A DNA stretch of 64,000 nt from Gemmataceae bacterium (GTDB lineage Bacteria; Planctomycetota; Planctomycetia; Gemmatales; Gemmataceae): NCBI GenBank assembly GCA_046350195.1, contig JAXMAW010000028.1:25490-89489 (forward strand), in the 5' to 3' direction. Below are positions 7,013-56,068 of this stretch, one piece after another (the stretch's first letter is position 1; each line of letters begins with the position of its first letter). The notes under the pieces are model-generated. The model was not told the DNA's origin. It worked only from the letters and a program-made list of their open reading frames with translations, and did no database searches. The position numbers and the translations under genes were made by a program.

Positions 7013-7019
7013 AGTTTCC

Positions 7020-7110: not shown

Positions 7111-7405
7111 CTATCCGGCTGTGGTCGTCCAGCGTCACGCTGGACAGCTCGCCGTTGTCCTTGGCGAAGTGGACGGTGACGACGACGATGTCGTCCTCCG
7201 GCACCCGGTCGGTGGCCAGCCCCGTGGCCAGGTAGTTCACGCCGCGGAACGTGCCCTCGACGGTCGTGTCCCAGCCCCAGCGGCTGTTCATCCGTACCCG
7301 CTGGGTGATTCGGATGCGCTGGCCCGGCCTTAGCGACTTTACGACCGAGGCCAGCCGCGGGCGGACCGGTCGCGTCGAGGAGGGCAGGGTGTCCGGCTGG
7401 CTCAT
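7091..7405 (-). CDS. hypothetical protein, 104 aa, translationally coupled to ilvN
   Basis: Intact ORF. Its ATG (7405) overlaps the ilvN stop in an ATGA arrangement. I recognise no motif. Confidence 0.6.
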   Translation of the reverse strand: MSQPDTLPSSTRPVRPRLASVVKSLRPGQRIRITQRVRMNSRWGWDTTVEGTFRGVNYLATGLATDRVPEDDIVVVTVHFAKDNGELSSVTLDDHSRIEVVSSQ

Positions 7406-7899
7406 GACTGCTTCTCCGCCCCGCGAGCGCCGCGCACCAGGGCGATCCGCCCCGACCGCGCCAGCTCGACGATCCCGTACGGCCGCATCAGCTCGATGTA
7501 CGCCTCGATCTTGTCCTCCCGCCCGGACATCTCGATGATCATCGTGTCGATGCCGATGTCCACCACCCGGCCGCGGAACATCTCGACCAGCAGGCTGATC
7601 TCGACGCGCTGCAGCGCGGTCGCCTTGACCTTCAACAGCATCAGGTCGCGCTCGACGTAGTCCTCGCTGGAGATGTCGTGGACCCGGACGACGGTGACTA
7701 CCTTGTCCAGCTGCTTGCGCACCTGGTCGAGCACGCCGTCGTCGCCCTTGACGACGAACGTCATCCGCGACAGGTTGGCGTCCTCGGTCTCGCCGACCGC
7801 GAGGCTGTCGATGTTGAAGCCCCGCGAGGCCAGCATGCCCGAGATGTGGGCCAGCACCCCCGGCTGGTTCTGCACAAGCGCCGACAGGACGTGTCGCAT
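7402..7899 (-). CDS. ilvN: acetolactate synthase small (regulatory) subunit
   Basis: MRHVLSALVQNQPGVLAHISGMLASRGFNIDSLAVGETED..MTFVVKGDD..QVRKQLDKVVTVVRV is an ACT domain plus the ALS small-subunit C-terminal domain. Start ATG 7899 is preceded by GGGGGAG. Confidence 0.9.
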   Translation of the reverse strand: MRHVLSALVQNQPGVLAHISGMLASRGFNIDSLAVGETEDANLSRMTFVVKGDDGVLDQVRKQLDKVVTVVRVHDISSEDYVERDLMLLKVKATALQRVEISLLVEMFRGRVVDIGIDTMIIEMSGREDKIEAYIELMRPYGIVELARSGRIALVRGARGAEKQS

Positions 7900-7981
7900 T
7901 CCGCTTTTCTCCCCCACCGCGTCATAAGATACCGTGATGATAGGAGAACCGTGACGTCCCGGCGACACCCCCGGAGCGCCC

Positions 7982-9663
<1,682 letters not shown>

Positions 9664-28500: not shown

Positions 28501-31500
28501 AGATGAGGTTCGGGCTCTTGGGGTGGATGTAGGTGAGCCCGCCATGCCCGCCGTCGATCGCCCGCGAGTAGCTGGAGCCGTTGTAGAGGATCGTGCCGTT
28601 GCCGATCGTCCCGCCGATGACGACGTTGGGGTTGAACGGATCGACGTCGAGCCCGGTGAACTCGCCGATGTTCAGCCCGCTGCCGTTGATGTTCTCCCAG
28701 GTGGCGTCGGCCGCCATCGACGACAGCCGCCAGACGCCGCCGTCGGTGGCGACGACCACCCGGCCCAGCGGGTCCACCGCGGCGCCGTGGTAGTTGACGT
28801 GCGGGGCGTTGGCCGACGTGCCGACGTCGTTCCAGGCGGGGGTGGCGCCGGGGACGTGCACGAACGGCCCGTTGGTGAACGGCTGCCCCACGCCGGCGAC
28901 GAACACCCGGGTGGCGTCGGCCCGCCCGGCGTTGGTGGTCGTCACGCCGGCCGGGCTGACCACCAGGGCGTTGGCGTACCAGCCGGCCCCGGGCTGGTTG
29001 GTCCGGACGTTGTCGAACGGCAAGCTGTTCGGCTGCGGGGTGCCGCCGTCGAGGCCGCCCGGGATCGCCGGCGCGAAGTCGCCCCAGCCGCCCAGCCCCC
29101 ACTCCGCGACGGTCGGGGCGGGGTTGTACGTCGCCGTCATGCTGAGCAGCTGGCGGAACCGCCCGTCGTTGTTGCCCGGGGCCGGGTTGTTGAGGAACTC
29201 CCGGTCGAGGTTGACCGGGTAGGAGACGAAGGCGAACTGCCGGACGTCGCGGCTGAGCCGGCCGGCGTTGCCGTCGGGCTGAGTCGGCCGCACGCCGGTC
29301 AGCTTGATCATGCCGTTGCGCGGCGTGACGATGTTGTCGATCGTCTCGTCCCCGTTGGGGAAGCCGTTGGCCGTCCAGCCGGCGGTGTCGGCGGCGCTGC
29401 CGGGTATGCCGGGGCTGCCCGGCAGGACATCGGAGAAGTCGGTGAAGAAGCCGAGGTAGGCCGAGTTGCTCGCGGCGGCGACGGTAACGCCGAGGTCGTG
29501 GCCGGTCGGGTCGCCGACCGCGAAGGTGACCATCCGGTACTCCGGCCGGTTGGGGTAGACCTCGCCGGGCACCCCCGCGTCGATCGGGTAGAACGGGTTG
29601 GACAGGTACGGGTTGACGTTGATCACCGTCAGGTCGGTGAACCGGTTCAGGTCGTCCAGAACGATCGTGCCCACCAGCGGGGCGGTCAGGTCCACCCACC
29701 CCTCGGCGACGGCCGGGCGGAAGAACGTCGCCGCCAAGGCCGGGTTGAACCGCCAGATGCCCAGGTTCAGGTTGCCGGCGTTGGCCGGGTTGGCCGGGTC
29801 GAAGCCGTTGACCCCGGGGCCCTCGACGGTGACGTAGAACACGTCGGCGTTGGTCGGATCGACCACGATCTGCGAGATCGTCTGCCGGTCGAACGCCGCC
29901 CCCGGCGGCTGGATCAGCCGCCAGCTCTTGCCCCCGTCGATCGACTTCAGGATCCCCTTGCCGTAGTAGTCCTCGACGGCGTGGTTGGGGTTGCCCAGCC
30001 CGACGTAGATCACCCGCGGGTCGGACGGGGCGACGGCGACGGTGCCGGCGAACAGCACCTGGTCGGTGTAGGTGGGGTCGTTGACGTGGTCGATGAGCGG
30101 CTCCCAGGTCAGGCCGCCGTCCTTGGTCCGCCAGGCGCCGCCGGAGGCCGACGTGATGTAGTACACGTTGGGGTCGATCGGGTCGGTGGCGACCGACGTC
30201 ACCCGCCCGGTGGTGTTCCCGGTGCCGGTCGTCCCCGCGCCGCCGGTCTGCCCGCCCACCGTCGGCCCGCCGCCCAACTGGAGCCAGCTCGGCTGGATGT
30301 TCGGGGCCGAGTTGGGGCCGTTGCCGACCACCTCCAGCGCCTCGCCGCCGATGGTGACGTCGTTCTGCACCTCGATGGAGGCGTCGTTGAGCAGCACCGT
30401 GCCACCCCGCCGGGCGACCGTGCTCGGCAGCCCGAACGCCTTCGAACTCTGGGCGCTGACGATGCCGGCGGTGATGACCGTGTTGCCGGCGAAGCTGTTC
30501 TCGCCGGCGAGCACCATCTTGCCCCGGCCGACCTTGGTCAGGCCGCCCGGGCCGGCGACGTCGCCCCGGAACGACAGCCGGCTGTCGTTGCCCGTGTCGA
30601 GCACGACGTTGGAGTTGAAGTTGACCGGCCCCAGCGCGGTGTTGTCGTCGGAGAGGTTGGTCACCGTCCGGGCCCCGCCCTGGACCGGCGTGCCGGATGT
30701 GACCGCCACGCCGGTGCCCCCGCCGGTGATCTGCGGCCGGTCGGCGCCGACGAGGTTCTTCTGGAACGTGATCGTGTAGTAGTACGACCCGTCCAGCGCG
30801 TCGATCGCCAGCGTGACCAGGACGCCGCCCGCCCCGATGGGCGGCAGGGCGTTCAGGGCGGCCTGGACCTGGGCGGCGGTGGCGCCGAACGGCAGCACCC
30901 GCGTCACCTGGTTGCCGAACACCAGGCGGAAGGAGGCGGTGCCCGGGGCGGCGCGGCGGACGCGGACGCGCTGGGTCTCCGCCAGGCCCGTGCCGAACAG
31001 GTCGATCCGGTCGCTCACCTGGATGCCGCCGCCGACCCCGCCGTTCACCGCCGGGTTGTGGCCGGCGAACTCCAGGGCCGCGCCGTTCTGCACCGTCGTC
31101 GTGGTGGGAATGACGTCGTTGACGTTGCCCGGGGTGGCCTTGTAGCCAACCCCCAGGGCGGTGTCGGACTGGACGCGGACGGTGCCCTCGCGGACGTTGA
31201 ACGCCCCGCTGTAGTCGCCCGGCCCCTGGAGGATCAGCCGGTTCTTGCCGTGCTTGTCCACCCCCGCGGGGCGGTTGGTCGGCGTGACGACGGCGGTGTA
31301 CTCCCACACCGTGCCCGGGTCGCCGGTCGAGCCGCGGTTGACGATGATGTCCACGAACGTGTCGGTGCCCGGGCCGAACGGGACGGTGACCGTCACCGGG
31401 GCCGTCGGGGTGGAGACGAGGCCGGTGTTGAAGATGACCTGCCCCTGGTACTCGATCTCCAGCCGGTCGGGGATGTTGAAGAAGTTGTAGGTGAGCTGGA

Positions 31501-40955: not shown

Positions 40956-43900
40956 ATGTCCACGCTTGTGGCGCTCGGCCTGGCGAACGCGGTGTGCGCG
41001 GCGGCGTTGGCGGTGCCGGCGTTCCTGGTCGGGAGGTACGCCCGGCGGCCGGCCCTGGCCCACGCGCTGTGGCTGTTGGTGCTGCTGAAGTTGGTGACGC
41101 CACCGGTGTTCCGCCCCAACCTGGCGTGGCTCCCCGCCGACACGCCGCGGGAGGCGGCGAAGGACGTGGTGACCTTCGCGGAAGAGCCGGCGGGCTTATC
41201 CCGCCGGGGCCTGCCCGACTGCTCCAGCCCCGTGTTCGTGTCGGTCCCGACCGGCGCCCAGCCGCCCCGCGCCATGGTGGTCCGTCAGGTGACCTCGGCC
41301 GCCCCCTCGGACGTCGTCCTCGCCCCGGTGCGAGCGAGCGGGAAGGCGACGGTCCTCGTCACCGTGCCTCCGCTCGACGTGAAGCCCCTCCCGGTCGAGC
41401 GCGGTCCGCAAGCCGACCCCGCCGGCGGCCTGGCCGACCTGGCGGTCCTCGTCTGGCTGACCGGTGCCGTCCTTTTCCTGGGGCGGGCGCTGTTCTTCGC
41501 GGCCGGCTTCCACGGCCTGCTGCGGCACGGGCGAGCGGCCCCGGCCTACATCCAGCGGCAAGCCGAGGAGCTGGCCATGGAGCTGGGGATGCGCCGCTGC
41601 CCGCGCGTCTGGCTGGTGCCGGGGCCACTGCCGCCGATGGTGTGGGGCGTCTGGTCGGCGCGGCTGCTGTTCCCCGAGGGCTTGCTGACGCGGCTCAGCG
41701 AGGGGGAGCGGGCCAGCCTGCTAACGCACGAGCTGGCCCACGTCCGCCGCCGGGACCACTGGGTCCGGCTGCTGGAGCTGGCCTGCGTGACTCTGTTCTG
41801 GTGGTTCCCGCTGGTGTGGTGGGCGCGGAAGCAGTTGCAGGCGCGCGAGGAGGAGTGCTGCGACGCCTGGGCCGCCGGCGCGGTGGCCCCGCGGGTCTAC
41901 GCCACGGCGATCCTGGAAGCGGTGGACTTCCTCGCCGAGGCCCGGCCGCGCCTGCCGGCGATGGCCAGCGCGCTGGACAGCAAGGGGGCGCTGAGGGAGA
42001 GACTGACGCTCATCCTGACGGCGCCGGCCCCGCGCCGGCTCGGCTGGCCGGCGCGCCTCGCCGTCGCCGCCCTCGCCGCCGCGGCGCTGCCGCTGGTGCC
42101 GACGCTGGTGCGGACCGAGGCGGCCGCCCCGCCCGTGGGGATAACAGACAATCGCGATCCGGAAGCGACGTCGTTCACCGTGTCCGCCACCGACTTCCTC
42201 GCCCCGCTGCGGGCGAAGCTCGGCGCCAGGCTGGCGGCGGTCGGGATGGCGGTCTCGCCTGACGGCAAAACATTGGCCGTAGGTGAAGAGGGCGGTCAGA
42301 TCCGGCTGCTCGACCCTCGCAGCGGCGGCCTGCTGCGGACGCTGAAGGGTCACGACGACGCCGTCACGACGCTGGCGTTCTCGCGCGACGGCAAGCGGCT
42401 GGCCACCAGCGGCCCGGACACGACGGTCAAGGTCTGGCGGGTCGCCGACGGCCAGCTGGCCCGGTCGCTGAAGGGCCCCGGCAGCTGGGTGTACACCCTG
42501 GCGTTCTCGCGCGACGGCAAGCGGCTCGCCTCGGGGTCGTACGACCGCTCCATCCACGTCTGGCCGCTCGACGGCGGCGAGGCCAAGGTGCTCGACGGCC
42601 ACCGCGCCTCGGTGCGGGCGCTGGTGTTCGGCCGCGACGACAGGACGCTGATCTCCGGCGGCACCGACCGGGCGATCCGCGTCTGGGACCTGGCGACGGG
42701 CCAGGGCAAGACGATCTCGAAGGACCACGAGGGCGACGTCCGCGGCCTGACCCTGCTGGGCGACGGCAGGTCGCTGATCTCCGCCGGCGGCGACGGCTAC
42801 CTGCGCCTCTACGACCTGGCGGCGATGAAGGAGACGAAGAGCGTCAAGGCCGCCCCGGAGGGGCAGATCATCTCGCTGACGCTGTCGCTCGGCGAGCGGA
42901 ACCTGGCCGTCGGCACCGAAGGCGGCTCGGTGATGCTGTACGACCCGGAGAAGTTGGTCCTGCGCACGACCCAGGCGTCGGTGCATCAGGGCGGGGCGCT
43001 GGCGCTGGGCTTCCTGCCGGGCGGGACGCGGATGTTCTCGCTGGGCGGCGACCACTCGCTGAAGGCGTGGGAGGGCGAGCCGGGCCCGCTGCGGCTGCTG
43101 GTCGGGCACAAGGGGCCGGTGCGGCACGCGGTTTACTCCCCGGACGGCCGGTGGGTCCTCTCCGGTGGCGGCTGGCCCGAGGGCGACGGGACTCTACGGC
43201 TGTGGGACGCGACCACGGGGCGACTGATTCGCGACGTCGTCACCAGCCAGAAACAGGTCTTCGCCCTCGCCTGGGCACCAGACGGCAGGCATGCCGTGAT
43301 CGGCCAGGAAGACGGGGCGGTGCAGATGTGGGACGTGACCGCGCCCAGGCTGGTGCGCGACTACAAGGGCCACACCGAACAGGTGCCTTTCCTGAGTCTG
43401 TCGCCGGACGGCAAGCACCTCGTAACCGGCAGCCACGATAAGACGGTCAAGGTGTGGAACGTCGAGACCGGCGCCGTGGAGCGGACGCTGTCGGGGCACA
43501 CGGGGCCTGTGCGGGCCGTGGCCTTCCACGCCGACGGCAAGCGGGTCATTTCCGGTTCGTGGGACAAGACGGTTCGCGTGTGGGACGGCGGGTCCGGCAG
43601 AGAGTTGGCCAGCGTCCCCTTCGCCGACGCCAAGGTCGAGCGCGTCGCGCTGCTGCCCGACGGCAAGCGCGTGCTGGTCGTCGGCGAGTCGGTGGCGCGC
43701 CTCTACGACCTGGAGACCGGCGGCGCGGTGCGCGAGTTCGGCCCGGTCTCGAACGGGGCGATTGGCCTGGACGTCTCGCCCGACGGCCGGCGGGCGTTGA
43801 CGTGCGGGTATGACGGCGCGGCCCGACTGTGGGACGTCGAGACGGGGGCAGAGTTGAGGCGGTTCGCCGGCCACCGGGGCACGGTGTGGAGCGTGCGGTT

Positions 43901-44018
43901 CTCGCCCGACGGCAAGACGGTGTTGACTTCCGGCGGCGGGGCGTGGGTTGGGGGCAAGCCGGTCAAGGGCGACGACTTTGCAATCCGCGTGTGGCGGCTG
44001 CCGACGGCGATGAATTAG
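40956..44018 (+). CDS. BlaR1-type M56 peptidase sensor fused to 14 WD40 repeats
   Basis: TM helices. HExxH in LLTHELAHVRRRDHW, then EEECCDAWAA. 14 units ending in V(K/R)VW / LRLW / LRLY-type strands, consistent with two 7-bladed propellers. Confidence 0.9.
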   Translation: MSTLVALGLANAVCAAALAVPAFLVGRYARRPALAHALWLLVLLKLVTPPVFRPNLAWLPADTPREAAKDVVTFAEEPAGLSRRGLPDCSSPVFVSVPTGAQPPRAMVVRQVTSAAPSDVVLAPVRASGKATVLVTVPPLDVKPLPVERGPQADPAGGLADLAVLVWLTGAVLFLGRALFFAAGFHGLLRHGRAAPAYIQRQAEELAMELGMRRCPRVWLVPGPLPPMVWGVWSARLLFPEGLLTRLSEGERASLLTHELAHVRRRDHWVRLLELACVTLFWWFPLVWWARKQLQAREEECCDAWAAGAVAPRVYATAILEAVDFLAEARPRLPAMASALDSKGALRERLTLILTAPAPRRLGWPARLAVAALAAAALPLVPTLVRTEAAAPPVGITDNRDPEATSFTVSATDFLAPLRAKLGARLAAVGMAVSPDGKTLAVGEEGGQIRLLDPRSGGLLRTLKGHDDAVTTLAFSRDGKRLATSGPDTTVKVWRVADGQLARSLKGPGSWVYTLAFSRDGKRLASGSYDRSIHVWPLDGGEAKVLDGHRASVRALVFGRDDRTLISGGTDRAIRVWDLATGQGKTISKDHEGDVRGLTLLGDGRSLISAGGDGYLRLYDLAAMKETKSVKAAPEGQIISLTLSLGERNLAVGTEGGSVMLYDPEKLVLRTTQASVHQGGALALGFLPGGTRMFSLGGDHSLKAWEGEPGPLRLLVGHKGPVRHAVYSPDGRWVLSGGGWPEGDGTLRLWDATTGRLIRDVVTSQKQVFALAWAPDGRHAVIGQEDGAVQMWDVTAPRLVRDYKGHTEQVPFLSLSPDGKHLVTGSHDKTVKVWNVETGAVERTLSGHTGPVRAVAFHADGKRVISGSWDKTVRVWDGGSGRELASVPFADAKVERVALLPDGKRVLVVGESVARLYDLETGGAVREFGPVSNGAIGLDVSPDGRRALTCGYDGAARLWDVETGAELRRFAGHRGTVWSVRFSPDGKTVLTSGGGAWVGGKPVKGDDFAIRVWRLPTAMN

Positions 44019-44039: not shown

Positions 44040-45635
44040 ATGAACATCTCACGCTCGTGGGCCGTGCTGGCCTGCGCGCTGGCGGCGCTGCCTTGCCCGG
44101 CGGCCGACCGCTACGCCGGGGCCGACGCCCTGGCCCGGCGCATCGACGACCGGCTGGCGTCGGCCTGGAAGCAGGCCGGCGTGCCGCCCGCCGCCGACGC
44201 CGACGACAGCGAGTGGCTGCGCCGCGTCTACCTCGACCTGGCCGGCCGCATCCCGTCGGTCACCGAGGCGCGGGCGTTCCTCGCCGACCGGCGCGAGGAC
44301 CGCCGCCGGCTGCTCGTCGAGAGGCTGCTCGGCGGCCCGCGCTTCGCCACCCACTTCGCGACGGTGTGGCGCAACTTGCTCTTGCCGGAGGGCAACGTCA
44401 ACTTCCAGGTGCGCTTCTCGCTGCCGGGCTTCGAGAAGTGGCTGCGCGACTGGGTCGTCTCCGGGCGCGGCTACGACGCCATGGTGACTGAGCTGCTGAC
44501 CACGGCCATCCGGCCCGGGGGCGGGGCCTTGCAGATCGGCGGCGCGCCCGGGCCGGCCCCCTTCTACTCCGCCAAGGAGTTCAAGCCGGAGGAGATCGCC
44601 GGCGCGGTCGCGCGGACGTTCCTCGGCGTCAACCTGTCCTGCGCCCAGTGCCACAACCACCCGTTCGCCGACTGGAAGCGCGAGCAGTTCTGGAGCTTCG
44701 CCGCGTTCTTCTCCGGCATCAAGGTGCAGCGGCGCGGCGACTTCGTCACCGCCGAGGCCGAGAAGGCCGACAGCCACGAGATCGAGATCCCCGGCACCGA
44801 CAAGGTGGTGAAGGCGAAGTACCTGAACGGCCAGCAGGCCGAGGTCGCCAAGGGGGCGAAGGCGCGGGAGGTGCTGGCGAGGTGGATGACGGCCAAGGAC
44901 AACCCGTACTTCGCCCGGGCGATCGTCAACCGGATGTGGGCCCACTTCTTCGGCACCGGGCTGGTCGAGCCGCTGGACGAGATGACCGGCACCGAGTCGC
45001 AGCCGAGCCACCCCGCCCTCCTCGACGAGTTGGCGGCGGGGTTCGTCGGGCACGGCCACGACCTGCGCTGGCTGATGCGGGCGATCACATCGACGAAGGC
45101 GTACCAGCTGTCGAGCCGGCGGTCGCACCCCGGCCAGGACGACGGCAAGCTGTTCGCCAAGATGGCGCTGCGCGGCCTGACGCCGGAGCAGCTGTACGAC
45201 AGCGTGGCGATGGCGACGGGCTTCCAGGAGGCGGCGCGCGGCGGCGGGTTCTACGACGCCGGCGGGGCGCGGAGCGAGTTCCTGACCAAGTTCGCCAACG
45301 GGGCCGACCGGCCGACCGAGACGCAGACGTCGATCCTGCAAGCGCTGACGCTGATGAACGGCCGCGTCGTGACCAGCGCGACCGACCTGAAACGGAGTGA
45401 GACGCTGGCCGCCGTGATCGACGCCCCGTTCCTGGACACGGCGGCGAAGGTCGAGGCGCTGTACCTGGCGGCGCTGACGCGGACGCCGACGGCCAAGGAG
45501 GTCAGCCGGATGGCCGCCTACGTGGAGAAGGGCGGCACGGCGCAGACGGGTAAGAAGCAAGAGCGCCGGGCCGAGGCGCTGGCGGACGTGTTCTGGGTGC
45601 TGCTCAACAGCGGCGAGTTCGTGCTGAACCATTGA
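44040..45635 (+). CDS. DUF1549/DUF1553 (PSD1-type) protein
   Basis: Signal peptide. DDSEWLRRVYLDLAGRIPSVTEARAFLAD (DUF1549). CAQCHNHPFADWKREQFWSFAAFF. C-terminal VFWVLLNSGEFVLNH (DUF1553). Confidence 0.9.
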   Translation: MNISRSWAVLACALAALPCPAADRYAGADALARRIDDRLASAWKQAGVPPAADADDSEWLRRVYLDLAGRIPSVTEARAFLADRREDRRRLLVERLLGGPRFATHFATVWRNLLLPEGNVNFQVRFSLPGFEKWLRDWVVSGRGYDAMVTELLTTAIRPGGGALQIGGAPGPAPFYSAKEFKPEEIAGAVARTFLGVNLSCAQCHNHPFADWKREQFWSFAAFFSGIKVQRRGDFVTAEAEKADSHEIEIPGTDKVVKAKYLNGQQAEVAKGAKAREVLARWMTAKDNPYFARAIVNRMWAHFFGTGLVEPLDEMTGTESQPSHPALLDELAAGFVGHGHDLRWLMRAITSTKAYQLSSRRSHPGQDDGKLFAKMALRGLTPEQLYDSVAMATGFQEAARGGGFYDAGGARSEFLTKFANGADRPTETQTSILQALTLMNGRVVTSATDLKRSETLAAVIDAPFLDTAAKVEALYLAALTRTPTAKEVSRMAAYVEKGGTAQTGKKQERRAEALADVFWVLLNSGEFVLNH

Positions 45636-45639
45636 CTCA

Positions 45640-45715
45640 CAGCTGTCAGCTATCAGCTGTCAGCCATCAGCCAGAGGGTTCTTGCTGATAGCTGACAGCT
45701 GATAGCTGACAGCTG
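45640..45715. repeat. 32-bp-stem hexamer-periodic hairpin between the DUF1549/1553 and DUF1501 genes
   Basis: CAGCTGTCAGCTATCAGCTGTCAGCCATCAGC (45640-71), loop CAGAGGGTTCTT, GCTGATAGCTGACAGCTGATAGCTGACAGCTG (45684-715). One mismatch. Confidence 0.9.
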
Positions 45716-45730
45716 ACAAGGAGACCTCGG

Positions 45731-47074
45731 ATGTCCACAACTCATTTCTCGCGCCGCGACTGGCTCAAGCTCGCCTCCGCCGGCGCCCTCGCCCCGTGCG
45801 TGTCCGGCTGGCTCGAGCCGCTCGCCCGCGCCGCCGCGCCCAACCCGGCCCGCAAGCGCGCCTGCATCCTGCTGTGGATGAACGGCGGCCCGTCGCAGAT
45901 GGACACGTTCGACCTGAAGCCCGGCCACAAGAACGGCGGGCCGTTCAAGGAGGTCGCCACCGCCGTCCCCGGCGTCAAGATCAGCGAGCACCTGCCGCTG
46001 CTCGCCAAGCAGGCGAAGCGGCTGGCGATCGTCCGCTCGATGTCCACCAAGGAGGCCGACCACGGCCGCGCGACTTACCTGATGCGGACCGGCCGCGCCC
46101 CCGGCGGGCCGATCCAGTACCCGGCGCTCGGCTCGCTCATCGGCAAGGAACTGGAGCCCAAGGACGCCGAGCTGCCTAGCTTCGTGAGCATCGCCCCGCA
46201 GCGGTTCCTCAGCTCGGCGGCGTACTCGTCGGGCTTCCTCGGCCCGCGCTACGCCCCGCTCATCGTCGGTGAGGGCGGCGGCGGGGTCGTCGTTGCCCAG
46301 CCCCAAAGCGACGCCTCGCGGTCGCTGCGCGTGCAGGACCTCGACCTGCCCAGGGGCGTGAGCCTCAAGCGCAACGGCGCCCGGCTGGAGATGCTCGACG
46401 AGATGGAGCAGGACTTCCTCGCCGACCGCTCCGGCCTGCCGTCGGTCAGCCACCGCACCGCCTACCACCGCGCCGTCGCCATGATGCGCTCGCCGGCGGT
46501 CAAGGCGTTTGACCTCGACGACGAGCCGGCCAAGCTGCGCGACGCCTACGGCCGGAACCTGTTCGGCCAGGGCTGCCTGCTGGCTCGCCGGCTCATCGAG
46601 CGTGGCGTGCCGTTCGTCGAGGTGACGCTGTCCAACGTCCCCGGCGCCTTCGGCTGGGACACGCACCAGAACAACTTCTCGATGGTCCAGGCGCTGTCGA
46701 AGGTGCTCGACCCGGGCTTCAGCACGCTGCTCGACGACCTGGCCGACAAGGGCCTGCTCGACACGACCACCGTCGTGTGGATGGGCGAGTTCGGCCGCAC
46801 TCCGCTGATCAACGGCGGCAACGGCCGCGACCACTGGGCCGTGTCGTGGTCCACGGTGCTGGCCGGCGGCGGCATCAAGGGCGGGCTGGCCCACGGCAAG
46901 ACGTCGGCCGACGGCATGGAGGTCAAGGAGAACCCCGTCAGCGTGCCCGACTTCCTGGCGACCGTCGGCCAGGCGCTGGGCCTGGACATCACCAAGCAGA
47001 ACCCGTCGAACGTCGGCCGGCCGATCCGCTTCGTCGATCCCGGCGCCAAGCCGATCAAGGAGGTGCTCGCATGA
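45731..47074 (+). CDS. DUF1501 domain protein (Tat signal)
   Basis: FSRRDWLKLASAGALA, CILLWMNGGPSQMDTFDLKPG, GEFGRTPLINGGNGRDHW. Confidence 0.92.
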   Translation: MSTTHFSRRDWLKLASAGALAPCVSGWLEPLARAAAPNPARKRACILLWMNGGPSQMDTFDLKPGHKNGGPFKEVATAVPGVKISEHLPLLAKQAKRLAIVRSMSTKEADHGRATYLMRTGRAPGGPIQYPALGSLIGKELEPKDAELPSFVSIAPQRFLSSAAYSSGFLGPRYAPLIVGEGGGGVVVAQPQSDASRSLRVQDLDLPRGVSLKRNGARLEMLDEMEQDFLADRSGLPSVSHRTAYHRAVAMMRSPAVKAFDLDDEPAKLRDAYGRNLFGQGCLLARRLIERGVPFVEVTLSNVPGAFGWDTHQNNFSMVQALSKVLDPGFSTLLDDLADKGLLDTTTVVWMGEFGRTPLINGGNGRDHWAVSWSTVLAGGGIKGGLAHGKTSADGMEVKENPVSVPDFLATVGQALGLDITKQNPSNVGRPIRFVDPGAKPIKEVLA

Positions 47075-49613: not shown

Positions 49614-51170
49614 TCATCCCAGCAGCACCATCGACCGCGCCAGCCGCGCCAGGCTCTCGACCAGCTCCTCCCGTAGCGCCGCCCGCACCTCCGCCGCTTC
49701 GCCCAGCTCGCGGCCGTCGCGCTTCAGGCCGATCTCGCCCGCCGCGACCAGCGCCGCCAGCCCCTCGACGATCGCGGCCCGGTCGCGCTCCCCGTCGCAC
49801 AGCGACAGCACGGCGCGGTCGAACACGGCCAGCTCCACCGTCTTGTGCCGGAGGTTCGTCACCCGCGCCCCGGTGCGCGCTTGCAGGCGCGTTAGCGCCG
49901 TCGCCCGCGGCCGGTCGCCCGGCGACAGTGTGAACGGCGTCAGGTGCGTGTGCAGGCCGACCAGGCCCGACAGGTAGAGGTGGACCAGCGACCTCGCCAG
50001 CATGCCGCGGCCCGGCTCGTCGTCGGCGCCGCCCAGCCGGTCGCGCACCGCCGACCACAGCTCGTCGAAGCGGAACGGCCGCGGCCACTGCTCGAACAGC
50101 GTCACCAGCGCCGCCTTGGCGAACGGCACGTTCGTCGAGACGGTCGAGCCGGCGTCGTTGACGAACTCCTCCACCTTGTCCGAGTTTACCTCCGGCCGCT
50201 CCGACACCGGCTTCGCCAGCCCCGCCGCCAGCAGCGATTCGACCACCCCCGGCCCCGGCATCCGGCTCAGCGGCACGTCGTCCCGAACGAGCAGCGTGCG
50301 GCGGAAGGTGCGGTTCTTCAAAAAGTCGAGGTACTGCTCCAGCTCGAGCAGGTCCGCCGAGAGGCCGCGCAGCACCTTTTGCACCTCGGGGGGGTAGACC
50401 GACAGGCTCGTGTGCAGCTCCGCCTCGCCGAGGTATTGCAGCCCGTGCCGTTTGGCGTGGCCCATGAAGTCGGTGAAGTAAACCGGGTGGTTTTCCGATT
50501 CGAGGTGCTCGTGGAAGACATAGTAATCGCCTTCCGGGCGGATCAGGTCCGCCTCGTCCTTGAGCACCTTGGCCCAGCTGCCGTCGCGGTCGGGGGTGCT
50601 CTCCTCGATGAAGTCGAGGACCAGCCTGGCGTGCTGGACCTTCGCCTCGGCCCCGTCCAGGTCGCGGGTGTGGAACTTCATCAGGTCGCGCACGCCGGCC
50701 CGCAGATACCACCCCGGGTAGGTGTTGTAGCTGACGTAGGCCACCCCCTGCGGGGCCAGGTTCGCCCGGCACACCGCCAGGATCTTGTCGCGCACCTCGG
50801 CCGGCACCCACGAGTAGACGCCGTGCGCGATGACGTAGTCGAACTCGCCGAACGACGGCTCGACGTCGAGGATGCCGCGGGCCTCCAGCCGCAGGTTGCT
50901 CAGTTCCAGCGCCGCGGCGACCTTCCGGCCCATCTCGATCTGCCGCTGGGACAGGTCAATGCCGACGAAGCTCGCCCCCGGCAGCGCCGCGGCCAGCGGC
51001 AGCAGGTTGCCGCCGGTCGAGCAGCCCAGTTCCAGGACCCGGCAGCGCTCGACGGGCGCCGGCGTCATGCCCAGCAGCCGGGCCAGCGTGGCCAGGCAGT
51101 CGGGGTGGGTCGCGTAGCGCGGCCGGGAGTCGTAGGGGACCTCGTCGTAGCTCGTTGCGGCGGAAGGCAT
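49614..51170 (-). CDS. class I SAM-dependent methyltransferase with C-terminal methyltransferase-regulatory-type domain
   Basis: YDEVPYDSRPRYATHPDCLATLARLLGM, RVLELGCSTGGNLLPLA (motif I), DYVIAHGVYSWVP, YLDFLKNRTFRRTLL. Confidence 0.88.
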   Translation of the reverse strand: MPSAATSYDEVPYDSRPRYATHPDCLATLARLLGMTPAPVERCRVLELGCSTGGNLLPLAAALPGASFVGIDLSQRQIEMGRKVAAALELSNLRLEARGILDVEPSFGEFDYVIAHGVYSWVPAEVRDKILAVCRANLAPQGVAYVSYNTYPGWYLRAGVRDLMKFHTRDLDGAEAKVQHARLVLDFIEESTPDRDGSWAKVLKDEADLIRPEGDYYVFHEHLESENHPVYFTDFMGHAKRHGLQYLGEAELHTSLSVYPPEVQKVLRGLSADLLELEQYLDFLKNRTFRRTLLVRDDVPLSRMPGPGVVESLLAAGLAKPVSERPEVNSDKVEEFVNDAGSTVSTNVPFAKAALVTLFEQWPRPFRFDELWSAVRDRLGGADDEPGRGMLARSLVHLYLSGLVGLHTHLTPFTLSPGDRPRATALTRLQARTGARVTNLRHKTVELAVFDRAVLSLCDGERDRAAIVEGLAALVAAGEIGLKRDGRELGEAAEVRAALREELVESLARLARSMVLLG

Positions 51171-51276: not shown

Positions 51277-51819
51277 ATGCGACGCCCTTTCGTCTGGCTG
51301 CTCCTCGGCGTCGCCGTGTGCTGCCTGGCGGCGCTCCTGCCCTCGCGGCAAGGGCAGGGGAGCCCTTCCGCCACTCCGCCGCCGACCGTCCCCTACGAGA
51401 AGCACTACGTCACCCCGCGGCAGCTCACCGCCGCCGGGTCGCTCGCCGACCGCCGAGTCGAGCGGTTCGCCACCGACCGGCCCACCGCCTTGCTCTTCCT
51501 CAAACAGGGCTGTCCCTGCAACGACGACTTCGCGCCGTTCTGGCGGCGCCTCCAGCAGGCCTACGGCGACCGCCTCGCCTTCGTCACCGTCACCGACGAC
51601 GATCGAGAGGCAATCCGCCTGTTTGAGGTTGAAAATAGCGGTTATCTGATTCTCCTCCGGCCCGACGGCACGGTCGATGCCGCCTGGCCGGGCTGGTCGC
51701 GCGAGATGTTCGAGCAGGTCCACCAGCGCGCCGCCGCGCTGGCCGGCGTCGCCGCCGCGCCGCCCGACCTCGACGGCCTGCCGCACGCCCTCACCACCGG
51801 TTGCCCCTACGAGAAGTAA
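51277..51819 (+). CDS. exported thioredoxin-fold protein (CPC motif)
   Basis: Signal/anchor MRRPFVWLLLGVAVCCLAALL. TALLFLKQGCPCNDDFAPFWRRL. LILLRPDGTV. Confidence 0.7.
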   Translation: MRRPFVWLLLGVAVCCLAALLPSRQGQGSPSATPPPTVPYEKHYVTPRQLTAAGSLADRRVERFATDRPTALLFLKQGCPCNDDFAPFWRRLQQAYGDRLAFVTVTDDDREAIRLFEVENSGYLILLRPDGTVDAAWPGWSREMFEQVHQRAAALAGVAAAPPDLDGLPHALTTGCPYEK

Positions 51820-51836
51820 CCAGCGAGGTAACTGCC

Positions 51837-53396
51837 ATGCCAGACGGCGTCTCGCGGCGGGACATCCTGAAGTACACGGCGGCCGGCCTGGCCGGCGCGG
51901 CCATCGCCAAGGGCGTCGATTACCTCGGCGTGCCCGGCCTCAACGCCCGCCAGGAGGGCACCAAGGCCCCGTCGCTGGGCAAGCTCGGCCGGTTCCTGTA
52001 CCTGTCGCCGCAGAAGCTCGGCGGCGGCACGCACGTCGTCGATATGGACGCGAACAGGACGCTCGCCTGGATCTCGTACTGGAACTACGGCGACACCTGC
52101 CCGATCTCGCACCACCTCGCCGCCTACCCGTCGCCCGACCCGTACAAGGGGTTCGAGTTCGTCAACTCGACCCAGGGCGGCGACAACGTGATGATCTACG
52201 GCCTGCCCACGCAGATCAAGAAGCTCGGCCTGCTCGAGCCGTGGTACGGCCAGGGCAACCGCATCTACCGCGTCCGCTTCGACGGCCAGCAGATGAACCT
52301 CGTCGAGGACGTCTCCGACACGACCGGCATCGGCCTCGGAGTCCATACCACGATCTACCCCGACGCCAACGGCTTCGCCTGCGCCGACGGCCAGAAGGAC
52401 CTCGCGGCCTTCTTCAACCGCCCGAAAGACCGCGAGAAGACCAAGGTGCTGATGGCCTACCGCGCCGACTGGGTCCCGAAGAACAAGGAGTCGCTGGAGC
52501 GCAACTGGCGGGACGGCGGCACGCTGCGCTTCCAGCGGCTGACTCAGCCCAAGGAGACCGGCAAGTACGATTACCAGGGCACCAAGGGCAACAAGATCAA
52601 CTGGGAAATGGTGCCCATGGCGGAGAACCTGGTCGAGAAGGGGATGATCCCCGGCGACAACCCGAAAGGGCTGGCCGGCCTCGACGGCGTCGTCCACCAC
52701 CCCGGCAACCGCTACTCGGCGATGATCCTGCGCATGCTCGCCAGCGCCTTGATCCTCGACCGCCAGACGTGGGAGCCGGTCTGCCTGCTGCACGCCCCGG
52801 AAGGCTCGCCGGACAACGTCCCGATCCGGAAGGTCGCCAGCGGGCCGGACACGTGGGAAGCAGACTTTAAAGATGTCAAATGCGTGGCCCACGAGTGCGG
52901 CTTCTCGCCCGACGGCAAGCACTTCACGCTGATGGCGAACATCCAGCAGAACTACATGCCCGTCTGGGACACCTCCGACGACGACCCGCGCAGGTGGAAG
53001 CGCGTCGCCGGCGTGAAGGACCCGTCGTGGAAGGGCGAGTACCCCAGCCCGTTCCACGTCGCCTTCTCGATGGACGGCAGCAAGATGTTCGTATCCGTGC
53101 TGCACCCGAAACCCGCCAACAGCGAGGTGGTGGCGGTCGATACGAAGACGTGGAAGATCATCAAGAAGTTCGAGAACGTCGGGCCCGACTGCCAGACGAT
53201 GGCGGTGACCTACGACGGCAAGTACGTCTTGCAGATCTTCTCGGGCTTCCAAAGGCTCTCCAGCGGTCTGTTCGTGTTCACCCAGGACACGCTGGAGCCG
53301 GTGGGCTACCAGCCGAACTTCGGCGGCCACCACGACTGCGTCATCGTGCCGGCCAAGGTCGAGCACCTGCGCAACAGCCGCTGCACGACGGTATGA
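51837..53396 (+). CDS. Tat-exported His-rich beta-propeller protein; candidate NosZ-N-domain / thiocyanate-dehydrogenase-like copper enzyme (function unproven)
   Basis: GAGG lies 8 nt before the ATG. SRRDILKYTAAGLAGAAIA (twin-arginine signal). His pairs CPISHHLAAYP, GVVHHPGNRY, FGGHHDCVIVP. Repetitive beta-strand and turn pattern. No cupredoxin domain. Confidence 0.9.
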   Translation: MPDGVSRRDILKYTAAGLAGAAIAKGVDYLGVPGLNARQEGTKAPSLGKLGRFLYLSPQKLGGGTHVVDMDANRTLAWISYWNYGDTCPISHHLAAYPSPDPYKGFEFVNSTQGGDNVMIYGLPTQIKKLGLLEPWYGQGNRIYRVRFDGQQMNLVEDVSDTTGIGLGVHTTIYPDANGFACADGQKDLAAFFNRPKDREKTKVLMAYRADWVPKNKESLERNWRDGGTLRFQRLTQPKETGKYDYQGTKGNKINWEMVPMAENLVEKGMIPGDNPKGLAGLDGVVHHPGNRYSAMILRMLASALILDRQTWEPVCLLHAPEGSPDNVPIRKVASGPDTWEADFKDVKCVAHECGFSPDGKHFTLMANIQQNYMPVWDTSDDDPRRWKRVAGVKDPSWKGEYPSPFHVAFSMDGSKMFVSVLHPKPANSEVVAVDTKTWKIIKKFENVGPDCQTMAVTYDGKYVLQIFSGFQRLSSGLFVFTQDTLEPVGYQPNFGGHHDCVIVPAKVEHLRNSRCTTV

Positions 53397-53420
53397 CGTC
53401 TCATCTCTGCACGGATCTGG

Positions 53421-53523
53421 CGAGCCGCGCACGAAGTAAGCGGTCAGGTCAGTATCAGCGGCCTCGCTTGGCGCTCTGCCCAGGGGAGCGCCTCCGCACC
53501 CCGCTTACTTCGTGCGCGGCTCG
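53421..53523 (+). promoter_or_regulatory. 23-bp perfect inverted repeat with a nested hairpin in the 139-nt spacer before the ABC permease gene
   Basis: CGAGCCGCGCACGAAGTAAGCGG (53421-43) pairs with CCGCTTACTTCGTGCGCGGCTCG (53501-23). The 57-nt loop contains GGCGCTC..GAGCGCC. The 3' arm ends 12 nt before ATG 53536. Confidence 0.8.
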
Positions 53524-53535
53524 CCGGGGGCACCG

Positions 53536-54720
53536 ATGAACCGCGCCACTCTTTTACCGCGCCTCGCCGCCCAGAACCTCGGCCGGCGGCCGGCGCGGAC
53601 GGCGCTGTCGGCGCTGGCCGTGGCGGTGGCCATCGCCGCGGTCTTCACCACGCTCGTCGTGCGCCGGGGGCTGTCCGAAGGCCTGGCCGCCGGCTTCGGC
53701 CGCATGGGCGCCGACCTGCTGATCGTGCCGCGGCAGACCCTGGTCAACCTCACGCCGGCGCTGCTCACCGCCGAGCCGACGCCGCACACGCTGGACGCAG
53801 GGCTGATCGACGTCGTCGCGAAGTTGCCGGGCGTCGAGCGCGTGGCGGCGCAGCGGACTCACCGCGTCGAGCTGCCCGGGCGCGGCCACTCTCACGCCGT
53901 CGATCTCGCCTCGTTCGACCCGCGCTCCGACTTCACCGTCCTGCCGTGGGTCGTCGAGAAGCTCGACCGGCCGATGCGCCCCGGCGACCGGATCGTCGGG
54001 GCGCGACGTGACGAGAAGGTGGACAGCGAGCTTTCTCTGTTCGGCCAGACGCTCACCGTGTACGCCAAGCTGGGGCTGACCGGCGTCGGGCCGTACGACC
54101 GCGCCGTCTTCGTCACGCCGGACACGTTTGAGCAGCTCACCGACGCCGGGGCCGCCCAGGCGTCGGCGCTGTTAGTGCGGCTGCGCGTCGGGGCGAAGGC
54201 CGAGGAGGTGCGCTTCGCGCTGGCGGATAACTCCGAGGTGAAGGTCGTCGCCGGGCCGTCGCTGTTCACGTCGGCCCGGCAGACGCTGACGGCGCTCCAA
54301 TCGGGAGCGCTGTTCTTCACGGCCCTTCTGATCCTCGCCAGCGTGCTGATGGTGAGCGTTGTGTTCTCCGCGGTGCTCGCCGAGCGGCGGCGCGAGCTGG
54401 GCCTGCTCCTCGCCGTCGGGGCGAAGCCGCGGCAGCTGCGTCGCCTGGTGCTTGCCGAGGCGGTGATGACGACCGGGCTAGGCGGCATCGTCGGCCTGAT
54501 GCTCGGCGCGGGATTCGTGCTCCTGTTCTACCGCTCGCTCGGCTACTACTTTGAGACGGTCGCCGCCCCGGTCGGCTGGCCGCCTCCCGAGACGCTGGCC
54601 CTGTTCGCCGGGGGTTGCGTTGCGCTGGCGGGCGCCATCGGGCTGGCCGGGGCCGCCGTGCCGGCCTGGCGCGCCAGCCGAGAGGAGCCTTACGTGCTGA
54701 TGCGGTCGGAGGGCAACTGA
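53536..54720 (+). CDS. FtsX/MacB-type ABC transporter permease
   Basis: LAAQNLGRRPARTALSALAVAVAIAAVF (TM1), a large periplasmic loop, and three C-terminal TM helices (LFFTALLILASVLMV.., AVMTTGLGGIVGLMLG.., LFAGGCVALAGAIGLAG). Confidence 0.85.
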   Translation: MNRATLLPRLAAQNLGRRPARTALSALAVAVAIAAVFTTLVVRRGLSEGLAAGFGRMGADLLIVPRQTLVNLTPALLTAEPTPHTLDAGLIDVVAKLPGVERVAAQRTHRVELPGRGHSHAVDLASFDPRSDFTVLPWVVEKLDRPMRPGDRIVGARRDEKVDSELSLFGQTLTVYAKLGLTGVGPYDRAVFVTPDTFEQLTDAGAAQASALLVRLRVGAKAEEVRFALADNSEVKVVAGPSLFTSARQTLTALQSGALFFTALLILASVLMVSVVFSAVLAERRRELGLLLAVGAKPRQLRRLVLAEAVMTTGLGGIVGLMLGAGFVLLFYRSLGYYFETVAAPVGWPPPETLALFAGGCVALAGAIGLAGAAVPAWRASREEPYVLMRSEGN

Positions 54721-54721
54721 C

Positions 54722-56068
54722 GTGCTCACGGCGCGCGGCCTGACGAAGGTCTACGCCGCGGGGAAGCGCCGCGTCGAGGCGGTCGTTGACGTCAGTCTCG
54801 ACGTCGCCGCCGGCGAGTTCCTCGCGATCTGTGGACGGTCCGGATCGGGAAAGTCCACCTTGCTGGCGATGCTCGCCGGGCTGTGCCGGCCGACGGCGGG
54901 CCGCGTGTCGGCCGGCGGCGAGATCGGGATGCTGTTCCAGTTCTCCGGGCTGCTGCCGACGCTGCGCGCCATCGACAACGTCGCGCTGCCGGCCCTGCTC
55001 CGCGACGGCGACGGGCTGGAGGCCGTCTACCGCCGGGCCGCGGAGTTATTGACGCGGGTGGGGCTGGCCGACCGGGCGGAGGCGTACCCGGCCGAGCTGT
55101 CCGGCGGCGAGCAGCGGCGGGTGGCGCTGGCGCGGTCGCTGATCCACGACCCGCCGGTGCTGCTCGCCGACGAGCCGACCAGCGACCTCGACGCGGAAAC
55201 CGAGGCGGAGATCGTGCGGCTGCTGCTCGACGTGCGCGCCGCGACCGGCAAGGCGCTGGTGGTGGTGACGCACAACCCCGACATCGCCGCGCTGGCCGAT
55301 CGCATGCTCCGCCTGGACCGCGGCCGCGTCGTGTCGGAGTCGGCGCCTGAGCCGGCGGGTTTCTCCCGCCGGTCTTTCCCGGACCGGCGGGAGAAACCTG
55401 CCGGCTCGGAGACCGCTCCCGCCACAACGTCTCCTCCGCCCACGCTCCTGGGGTCGGGCGCGGGCCGGTTCGTGCTCGACTTCGCCCTCTGGGTGGGCGT
55501 CATCGCCCTGGCCGTGGCGGGGTTCAACCACGCCGCCGCCCGGTTCCAGCAGTCGCGCCTCGAAGAGCGCAAATCCGATCGCGAGCGGCTCGAGCAGGCG
55601 GCGCTGCGCCAGCTACGCGCCGACGTCGAGAACATCGCCGCCGGCCCGGACGGCTCGTTCCTGTTGACGGTCTACCTGCAAAACGTCGCCCCCGAGGAGG
55701 AGCTTTACGTCACCGCCCCGAGTCTGCGGGCGTTCGTCCAGGTCGAGCGCGACTGGGTGGAAGTCCCGCTGGAGCCGGCCGACGACCAGGCCGGCCGCGT
55801 CGTCGCGCTGACCGACCGGCGCCCCTTCCGGTTCCGCTTCACGCCCCGGCTGACCCGCTTCGAGGAACTGCTGCCGGGCTACATGCACGTGCGGCTCAGC
55901 AACACGATGCTGATCCGTCCCGGCCGTGATGCCCAGGCCGCCCCGTTCGAGCGCGTCGATGACTACTACATCTACCTCAAGCCGCACGGCGCCGACGACG
56001 CGGCGATCCTGAAGAGGCTGAAGTTCCCCGGCAAGCCGCCGCTGTGGATCCCGATGCCGCCGCATTAG
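54722..56068 (+). CDS. ABC ATPase (about 205 aa) continuing in frame into a TM + coiled-coil + beta-rich module of about 220 aa; possibly two genes
   Basis: GTG start 1 nt after the permease stop. GRSGSGKST (Walker A), [31 protein letters not shown]. After [10 protein letters not shown] comes a 59-bp palindrome, then [21 protein letters not shown] (TM) and [23 protein letters not shown]. Confidence 0.8.
55349..55407. repeat. 59-bp near-perfect palindrome inside the ABC ATPase ORF
   Basis: GAGCCGGCGGGTTTCTCCCGCCGG TCTTTCCCGGA CCGGCGGGAGAAACCTGCCGGCTC: a 24-bp stem with one mismatch. Encodes [21 protein letters not shown]. Confidence 0.9.

Follow-up and report, generated by a model that had tools for sequence, protein, structure and literature searches.

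A Gln-type thiocyanate dehydrogenase-family enzyme and its FtsX/ABC partner genes in a Gemmataceae bacterium

The question raised by the locus described here is what a planctomycete makes when it exports a propeller-like protein with three His-His pairs, the gene of which is followed directly by those of an ABC machine. The locus is a cassette of four genes (51277-56068, plus strand) in a 64,000-nucleotide stretch of DNA from a Gemmataceae bacterium (NCBI GenBank assembly GCA_046350195.1, contig JAXMAW010000028.1, positions 25,490 to 89,489 of the forward strand); this whole stretch is referred to as the window, and all coordinates of the cassette are counted from its first letter. A previous reading of the letters and open reading frames (ORFs) by a model, the sequence-only reading, had likened the 519-aa product of the second gene to N2O reductase (NosZ), to thiocyanate dehydrogenase (TcDH) or to SBP56/methanethiol oxidase. 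In this study, we observed that the protein belongs to the TcDH family, in which it carries Gln at a position where the characterised enzymes have an active-site His. The cassette as a whole is read here as encoding a periplasmic trinuclear-copper oxidoreductase of the TcDH family together with an ATP-driven machine that would load it with copper, and we give this reading a probability of roughly 55%. To our knowledge, TcDH is among the few copper enzymes with a trinuclear centre that act without dioxygen, and studies of it have so far been confined to a few sulfur oxidisers.

Family and fold of the exported enzyme

The enzyme gene occupies 51837-53396 (plus strand) and encodes 519 residues. 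In a phmmer search of the PDB, the strong matches were all TcDH, with E-values from 1.7e-150 to 2e-131 over query residues 48-518; the enzyme of Pelomicrobium methylotrophicum (pmTcDH) was matched at 9e-150 with 49% identity, and that of Thioalkalivibrio paradoxus (tpTcDH) at about 1e-132 with 44% identity. An AlphaFold (AF2) model built from 39 homologues (pLDDT 81) was compared with known structures in Foldseek, where it fitted 20 TcDH chains with target-normalised TM-scores of 0.92-0.95 and root-mean-square deviations of 2.0-2.3 Å (about 2.1 Å). The next matches after TcDH were generic propellers with TM-scores of at most 0.78, including a YVTN S-layer protein, NirF, NirN and lactonases. 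Judged by both sequence and model, the 519-aa protein is a seven-bladed beta-propeller of the TcDH family, in a variant that we call Q-type, and the claim of a Tat-exported, TcDH-like propeller is borne out. It shares fold and twin-arginine (Tat) export with the known TcDHs (EC 1.8.2.7; PDB 5F75, 5OEX, 6UWE and 8Q9X) but differs in its host, which is a planctomycete where the classical hosts are sulfur oxidisers. The Tat motif SRRDILK (residues 6-12, codons verified at 51852-51872) has an RR pair that is nearly invariant among the homologues (alignment A3), and the Pfam TAT_signal model matched at E = 0.0018, below its curated cut-off.

The two other families that had been named for this protein did not stand. 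A propeller related to the CuZ domain of NosZ, or to SBP56, would share with the window enzyme seven blades, Tat export and ABC-type accessory genes as well as His-ligated copper, and the SBP56-like structure 2ECE served as a distant second template for another TcDH-like protein (PMC8061750). Nevertheless, no NosZ or SBP56 chain was present among the PDB sequence matches at E <= 1 or in the top 50 of Foldseek, the folds after TcDH being the generic propellers mentioned above; no Pfam SBP56 match was obtained; neither the CuA cupredoxin domain of NosZ nor any other extra domain was found with Pfam and NCBIfam, so the earlier remark that the protein has no cupredoxin domain is correct; and the ABC module is of the FtsX type, not of the NosDFY type. 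We therefore regard kinship with NosZ or SBP56 as effectively refuted.

Names given by others to members of this family need care. The automatic annotation at JGI is 'thiocyanate desulfurase', which is a name and not a test. Likewise, a 'novel thiocyanate desulfurase' described from Afipia / THI201 is only 33.7% identical to 5F75 (PMC8061750), which places it in a more distant lineage and makes it no functional evidence for the Gln-type clade considered below.

The glutamine in the active site and the clade that carries it

With reference to the 13 active-site residues of T. paradoxus TcDH listed by Tsallagov et al. (PMC6504805, Fig. 4), the active site of the window enzyme was mapped through a HMMER alignment to 5oex/5f75 and through MAFFT. 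Twelve of the 13 published residues are kept, and His482 is the exception. The conserved residues, spread over 52014-53381 (plus strand), correspond as follows, with the T. paradoxus residue first and that of the window second: K103 to K60, H135/H136 to H92/H93, Q156 to Q113, H206 to H170, E288 to E257, D314 to D283, H381 to H352, F436/H437 to F406/H407, H527/H528/D529 to H498/H499/D500, and R544 to R515. Beyond the 13-residue list, F436 and Y164 of T. paradoxus are also kept. Three His-His pairs had been pointed out as possible metal ligands, and all three are encoded where claimed. Two of them, H92/H93 (52110-52115) and H498/H499 (53328-53333), coincide with TcDH active-site residues. The third, H287/H288 (52695-52700), does not; it aligns with F318/D319 of tpTcDH, neither of which is a classical ligand position, and the second His of the pair varies among relatives.

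At the position of His482 (tpTcDH), or His447 (pmTcDH), the window enzyme has Gln453 (53193-53195, plus strand), a substitution that defines a clade and that the sequence-only reading did not see. Gln occupies this position in all 120 of the best protein matches and in 157 of 157 clade members drawn from genomes and metagenomes, and His occupies it in 11 of 11 classical-type sequences. The same change has been made in the laboratory. The best PDB match of the window enzyme is the engineered pmTcDH H447Q (8YU5), and tpTcDH H482Q (6SJI) outranks its own wild type; the PDB titles confirm H447Q (8YU5, 8YU6) and H482Q (6SJI) as mutants. They top the ranking because Gln453 is natural in the window enzyme, and they carry exactly its substitution, but as a single-site change in a classical background, without the Met, Met, Glu and Pro changes that are fixed alongside it in the clade.

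These companion changes were recognised by computing the columns that separate the two types over 168 sequences, of which 157 are Gln-type and 11 classical. Eighteen alignment columns separate the types, several of them adjoining active-site residues, and the fixed Gln-type state is found in 157/157 members against 10-11 of 11 classical sequences with the other state. In T. paradoxus numbering, Leu at position 289 becomes Met (M258 in the window), Gly at 292 becomes Met (M261), Gln at 382 becomes Glu (E353, 52893-52895), Thr at 435 becomes Pro (P405), and His at 482 becomes Gln (Q453). The two Met residues stand beside the Glu of the active-site list, in the stretch E257-M258-V-P-M261 (52605-52619, plus strand). 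Elsewhere in the active site the residues show essentially no variation over more than 270 sequences, and for this reason the active site of the Gln-type clade looks functional, though remodelled. In the 2020 work of Tikhonova and colleagues, His482 is said to be a ligand of the third copper (Cu3). The alignment suggests that this third site would be remodelled in the window enzyme, with Gln453, Met258, Met261 and Glu353 in place of His, Leu, Gly and Gln, and such a site may differ in copper affinity, redox potential or substrate range.

Two candidates for a substitute ligand were considered and rejected. The H287/H288 pair sits at the end away from D283, the residue with which the inner strand (model residues 282-287) opens, and the positions of the pair are variable: position 318 is His in 77 Q-type sequences and Trp in 80, and Phe, Tyr or Trp in the H-type, and position 319 may be His, Asp, Asn or Glu across the family. 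At Cys452, which neighbours Gln453 and could have served as a thiolate ligand, members of the clade have Cys, Ala, Thr, Leu or Met.

The Gln-type clade is both large and widely dispersed. The 120 best matches came from a collection of 5.8 billion proteins and are 63-89% identical to the window enzyme. Eighty genomic loci all carry Gln at position 482, and their hosts include Planctomycetota (with cultured Singulisphaera strains, of which sp. Ch08 and GP187 have homologues at 55% identity), Melainabacteria/Obscuribacterales, Verrucomicrobia subdivision 6, Xanthobacteraceae and other Alphaproteobacteria, as well as Methylococcaceae/Crenothrix, a Myxococcales metagenome-assembled genome (MAG), Solibacteraceae and Planktothrix. 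When public assemblies were searched for the exact sequence of the window enzyme, no record came up. Even when the classical T. paradoxus sequence served as the seed of a metagenome scan, 70 Gln-type loci came back against 10 classical His-type loci; the latter are 68-71% identical to the seed, and nine of them were complete enough to classify. The commonest TcDH relatives sampled are thus of a different flavour from those studied in the laboratory, as 157 of 168 have the natural His-to-Gln change together with the fixed Met, Met and Glu. No description of the clade was found in the literature searched, nor any characterised planctomycete member of the TcDH family, in agreement with what had been supposed from the sequence.

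Some members of the clade deserve separate mention. One locus (L032, MKVQ01000043.1) belongs to Myxococcales bacterium 68-20, the record name of which (scnpilot_expt_750_bf) points to a thiocyanate-fed pilot bioreactor; it holds a complete Gln-type cassette of thioredoxin-like gene, enzyme, FtsX and fused ATPase. Five Gln-type loci (L017, L020, L026, L029 and L086), with Crenothrix, Methylococcus, Methylococcaceae and a Nitrospirota-labelled MAG as hosts, display no FtsX/ABC genes in the available 2-10 kb of flank, and in L086 the enzyme gene has lipid and polyketide-type genes as neighbours. The alphaproteobacterial subclade with Trp318-His319 occurs in two gene orders (L065-L080 and L098-L161), namely ftsX-abc-(MPxH)-enzyme in GTDB genomes and enzyme-ftsX-abc-(MPxH) in soil and freshwater metagenomes, where MPxH stands for the domain described in the next section; in this subclade the domain has a gene of its own in 36 of 48 cases.

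As regards the reaction, the enzyme would most likely oxidise thiocyanate, or a very close sulfane-sulfur pseudohalide, to cyanate and S(0), with the electrons passing to an acceptor whose gene lies elsewhere. In view of the fixed Gln/Met/Met/Glu set, a different substrate has to be taken seriously as a rival: fold and cassette would be the same, but the Q-type enzyme would not be a thiocyanate dehydrogenase, its remodelled third site serving another substrate or reaction, such as some other compound of sulfur or selenium, some other pseudohalide, or a product formed when an organic thiocyanate or isothiocyanate breaks down. The five substitutions that fall on active-site residues or next to them, seen in 157/157 clade members and in 0/11 classical sequences, speak for it, and so do the identity of only 44-49% to characterised TcDHs, the lack of linked cyanase, cytochrome c or sulfur-oxidation genes, and the hosts, which are mostly soil and freshwater heterotrophs that do not oxidise sulfur (Planctomycetota, Obscuribacterales, Verrucomicrobia, soil Alphaproteobacteria). 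On the other hand, essentially no variation is seen in the listed Lys, Glu, Gln and Arg or in any other listed His or Asp residue, the accessory genes have their orthologues in true TcDH operons, one clade member comes from the thiocyanate-fed bioreactor MAG, and the JGI label points the same way, for what an annotation is worth. We consider the different substrate possible but the less probable of the two. Either outcome would matter, as the degradation of thiocyanate, a pollutant, is much wider than assumed if Gln-type enzymes oxidise it, and if they do not, a new copper-propeller chemistry is to be found.

The partner genes and the proposed loading of copper

The four ORFs of the cassette are co-directional and lie as the sequence-only reading had placed them: a thioredoxin-fold protein (51277-51819, 180 aa), the enzyme, an FtsX permease (53536-54720, 394 aa, with an alternative GTG start at 53512) and an ABC ATPase with a C-terminal module (54722-56068, 448 aa), all on the plus strand. 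The intergenic gaps measure 17, 139 (115 from the alternative start) and 1 nt, so that the ATPase starts 1 nt past the FtsX stop codon. The GC content at third codon positions (GC3) of the four genes is 0.88-0.94 in a window of 70% GC, which is typical for genes of the window, and the four ORFs therefore look like real genes. Among 167 related loci, which come from at least seven phyla, most have the enzyme gene adjoining homologues of the FtsX gene, the ABC gene and the C-terminal domain. This adjacency spans Planctomycetota, Melainabacteria, Verrucomicrobia, Alphaproteobacteria, Myxococcota, Acidobacteriota and Cyanobacteria; it was seen in most loci with enough flank, and the genes around the cassette are otherwise unrelated between loci. 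The gene neighbourhood is conserved across phyla and is far beyond chance.

The permease matched the Pfam models FtsX (2.6e-17) and MacB_PCD (2.1e-09). By hydropathy its transmembrane helices lie at residues 24-42, 263-281, 304-322 and 354-372, which is the 1+3 pattern of FtsX, with a periplasmic domain of about 220 aa between the first and the second helix. In the ATPase, the first ~210 residues (54722-55351, plus strand) form a cytoplasmic, LolD/MacB/FtsE-like ABC domain that matched Pfam ABC_tran at 4.8e-30; its nearest NCBIfam models are LolD (2.4e-53), MacB, DevA and FtsE, all below their equivalog cut-offs. By these matches, the permease and the ATPase form a type VII (MacB/FtsX) ABC system, and the module had been named correctly as one of MacB/FtsX type.

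The remainder of the ATPase polypeptide, which had been taken for a miniature periplasmic adaptor, turned out differently. A transmembrane helix at residues 250-268 (55469-55525, hydropathy 2.27) lies within one continuous helix (fragment residues 30-82 of the AF2 model), and it is followed by a stalk helix and a beta-sandwich (55526-56065, plus strand, AF2 pLDDT 88) that the topology shows, as predicted from sequence, to be periplasmic. A MacA-like adaptor, which should have an alpha-hairpin coiled coil together with lipoyl and beta-barrel domains, was rejected on this account, as the model gives one long helix and then a beta-sandwich, and Foldseek returned no adaptor matches. The domain carries a Met/His signature made up of a GYMHVR motif (55877-55894, conserved as GYxHxR) and a C-terminal M-P-P-H-COOH (56054-56065), and we name it the MPxH domain after its invariant M-P-x-H end. 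In alignment A1, G171, Y172, H174, M230, P231 and H233 are invariant and M173 nearly so; every complete homologue in the loci ends in M-P-[P/A/S]-H, with His as the last residue, and some lineages have Leu or Phe for the Met of GYMHVR. No Pfam model matches the domain, and its Foldseek neighbours are weak Ig-like, ApaG and Kir-CTD matches at low TM-scores, with no copper chaperone or adaptor among them.

The MPxH family is small. A full HMMER pass over 1.84 billion representative proteins retrieved only 289 clusters, which suggests a family dedicated to TcDH-type operons. Its members are either fused to the ATPase (about 435-486 aa) or standalone (about 200-306 aa). The fusion is found in 52 of 53 loci of the His318 subclade, and the domain mostly has its own gene in the Trp318 (alphaproteobacterial, soil) subclade and in classical loci, including the H-type tcdH operons of Pelomicrobium and of the metagenomic locus L096. 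Conserved Met and His residues carried on a beta-sandwich in the periplasm are a usual feature of Cu(I) chaperones, and the MPxH domain may load copper.

The linkage of tcdH to ABC genes is in itself already known. In Thioalkalivibrio, two permease/ATPase gene pairs follow tcdH, and then come hypothetical genes (PMC5328954, PMC5744179); the permeases have one N-terminal and three C-terminal transmembrane helices, which is the FtsX topology, and one hypothetical protein has only one transmembrane helix, located at its N-terminus (PMC5744179). All of these genes are upregulated on thiocyanate, by 4.5- to 6.7-fold for the permease, ATPase and one-helix hypothetical genes, and it was suggested that the tcdH-linked genes have a part in acquiring copper (PMC5744179, PMC5328954). 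Compared with the tcdH operon of Pelomicrobium, the source of the solved pmTcDH, the window products are 41% (FtsX1), 49% (ABC1) and 41% (a 225-aa MPxH protein) identical, and the permease, the ATPase and the MPxH domain are orthologues of the genes behind tcdH in that organism. Classical tcdH operons have two permease/ATPase pairs and MPxH as a separate one-helix protein, whereas the window has one pair and a fused MPxH domain, so its cassette is a minimal version of the TcDH operon. What is new here is therefore a Gln-type, single-pair, fused-domain TcDH operon, through which a large uncharacterised clade is exposed, with none of its members characterised in the phylum.

The classical-type locus L096 has a Pelomicrobium-like layout with a Sco1/SenC-like gene and aprA upstream. 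The former (8434-9204, minus strand, CADVCP motif) is divergent from the His-type tcdH, and the latter, an AprA-like adenylylsulfate reductase gene (6565-8409), stands beside it. L096 (14912-15601 and 15604-16260) also encodes a second paralogue of the C-terminal domain with GYVHLR and without the M-P-x-H end, and in Pelomicrobium (L170) a 172-aa predicted lipoprotein (7055-7573) comes after the MPxH gene; the window lacks a counterpart of either.

On these grounds we propose the following working of the cassette. The apo-propeller would be exported folded by Tat, and the type VII (FtsX/MacB-like) ABC machine would load copper into its central tunnel in the periplasm. ATP hydrolysis may drive a motion of the FtsX periplasmic domain and of the MPxH beta-sandwich, as in MacB/FtsEX (PMC5985334, PMC7668044), transporters of the FtsX/MacB kind being known to act by mechanotransmission to the periplasm (PMC5985334, PMC7668044). 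In the MPxH domain, Cu(I) would be carried by the conserved His and Met residues and by the C-terminal His. Such loading would parallel the reported action of NosDFY-NosL on N2O reductase, where the CuZ centre has a Cu(I) chaperone of its own in NosL (PMC6530538, PMC8457098). The two systems would share an ABC system with periplasmic parts, a Cu(I) chaperone and a Tat-exported, His-ligated multicopper propeller, but this is a working analogy only; no homology was detected, the window permease is FtsX/MacB-type and not NosY, and there is neither a NosD beta-helix nor a NosL. A copper-loading role, if true, would be the second case after NosDFY-NosL of an ATP-powered assembly of a periplasmic metal centre, and the FtsX/ABC module with its M-P-x-H end is a concrete candidate for the insertion of copper into TcDH, a question that the Thioalkalivibrio papers left open.

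Several hints of copper handling point in this direction: the Met/His signature of MPxH, its periplasmic beta-sandwich, the dedicated family, the Sco1/SenC-like gene in an H-type locus, and PDB titles, which set 'non-activated' pmTcDH apart from the activated form, name a Cu(I) complex of tpTcDH and fit an enzyme that needs copper after folding. It is also conceivable, though we think it unlikely, that the FtsX/ABC-MPxH module is not a copper loader at all but an FtsEX-like mechanical activator or dock by which the propeller is opened or positioned, or a device that clears a product, such as sulfur or polysulfide from the active site, out of the periplasm. FtsX systems often regulate periplasmic partners without transmembrane transport (PMC7668044, PMC5985334), the Thioalkalivibrio transporter genes gave no metal-binding domain in InterProScan (PMC5744179), the GYMHVR motif does not always keep its Met and no copper chaperone stands among the Foldseek neighbours of MPxH. 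A purely mechanical role is hard to square with the invariant M-P-x-H end and the invariant His, and the PDB titles just mentioned also argue for copper, as do the copCD/cus and Sco-like genes that accompany classical tcdH, which make copper supply an operon-level concern.

The bolder form of the copper-loading proposal joins two claims: that FtsX/ABC-MPxH is a previously unrecognised ATP-driven periplasmic copper insertase for TcDH-family propellers, and that the widespread Gln-type clade has a His/Met/Gln-type third copper site with a non-thiocyanate substrate or chemistry. Taken together, we hold this combination to be rather improbable.

Against the reading of the cassette as a TcDH-family oxidoreductase with its copper loader, the following points must be set. 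A listed active-site His is absent, and the same change was engineered into two TcDHs (6SJI, 8YU5/8YU6); if those mutants are dead, thiocyanate turnover by the window enzyme would need compensation. The 64-kb window has no cyanase, cytochrome c or sulfur-oxidation gene, and none is conserved beside related cassettes, where classical TcDH loci do have genes of these types; the fccAB and copCD/cus genes and the sigma-54 two-component regulator of classical loci are equally absent from the window and from the conserved surroundings of related cassettes. In the methanotroph-type loci, the enzyme gene occurs without adjoining ABC genes. The replacement of the GYMHVR Met by Leu or Phe weakens the case for a strict Met2His2 site. 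The thioredoxin-fold gene is absent from Melainabacteria, alphaproteobacterial and classical loci and is consequently not essential to the system. Finally, every functional step beyond the TcDH-family fold is one that we infer.

The thioredoxin-fold protein and the surroundings of the cassette

The first gene of the cassette encodes what appears from its sequence to be an exported or membrane-anchored, TlpA/ResA/DsbF-like thioredoxin-fold protein, with a hydrophobic N-terminal segment at residues 5-23. The window protein alone gave no Pfam or NCBIfam match above threshold, only a sub-threshold Rng_hyd_C, and its fold is clear only through the orthologues: a profile of 29 of them matched DsbF (1.7e-07), ResA (3.2e-07) and other TlpA-like oxidoreductases in the PDB, and 28 of the 29 have a Pfam AhpC-TSA or Redoxin match. 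The thioredoxin-fold partner claimed by the sequence-only reading is hence upheld, as is its CPC motif. This CxC (C79-P-C81, codons verified at 51511-51519) replaces the usual CxxC, the first Cys of the one motif aligning with that of the other, and a third Cys, C176 (51802-51804), likewise invariant, lies in a C-terminal G-C-P tail. TlpA/ResA/DsbF and Sco1/SenC proteins differ in having CxxC or CxxxC. The invariant residues of the family are H43, F74, C79, C81, W137, G139, S141, G175 and C176.

In the loci found, the thioredoxin-fold gene is always linked to a TcDH-like gene; in loci of planctomycetes and Myxococcales it comes directly upstream of the enzyme gene, and in Verrucomicrobia it is found downstream of the ABC genes. 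A thioredoxin-like gene is also found just upstream of tcdH in Thiohalobacter and Guyparkeria, where its product was proposed as an S(0) acceptor (PMC6504805). In the proposed cassette, the CxC protein may handle Cu(I) or thiols in the manner of Sco/TlpA, or it may take the S(0) product on its C-terminal Cys.

The window copy (180 aa) is without two segments that are found in most orthologues (200-240 aa; L002, L006, L058 and others), about 15 residues before the CxC and about 22 residues after the strand that comes next. In locus L168, its closest relative has the same 180-aa form with 77% amino-acid identity, and the window gene is accordingly taken to be real. About 40 shared intergenic bases just 5' of the thioredoxin-like gene are near-identical between the window and L168 (GCCGGCTACAACACACCTGCCC...GGCGGAGGC), and going by the sequence this stretch could be a regulatory site. 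A PKMT-type methyltransferase gene (49614-51170, minus strand) is divergent from the cassette and is syntenic in L168 (1103-2662). No Rfam family and no sigma-70-like promoter was found in the window, and a terminator scan was uninformative.

The rest of the window is typical of planctomycetes, which suits the host guessed by the sequence-only reading, with PSCyt2/PSD1 and DUF1501 pairs, WD40 and EF-hand proteins and Ser/Thr kinases. An ORF of 2824 aa (25511-33985, minus strand, GC3 0.98) has the passenger-associated transport repeat (PATR) as its one clear Pfam match, besides a weak Sortilin-Vps10 match. At 40956-44018 a BlaR1-type M56 peptidase is fused to a long WD40 array, at 44040-47074 PSCyt2/PSD1 (DUF1549/DUF1553) is followed by DUF1501, and a second DUF1501 gene lies at 632-2569; pairs of PSCyt2/PSD1 and DUF1501 are hallmark planctomycete genes.

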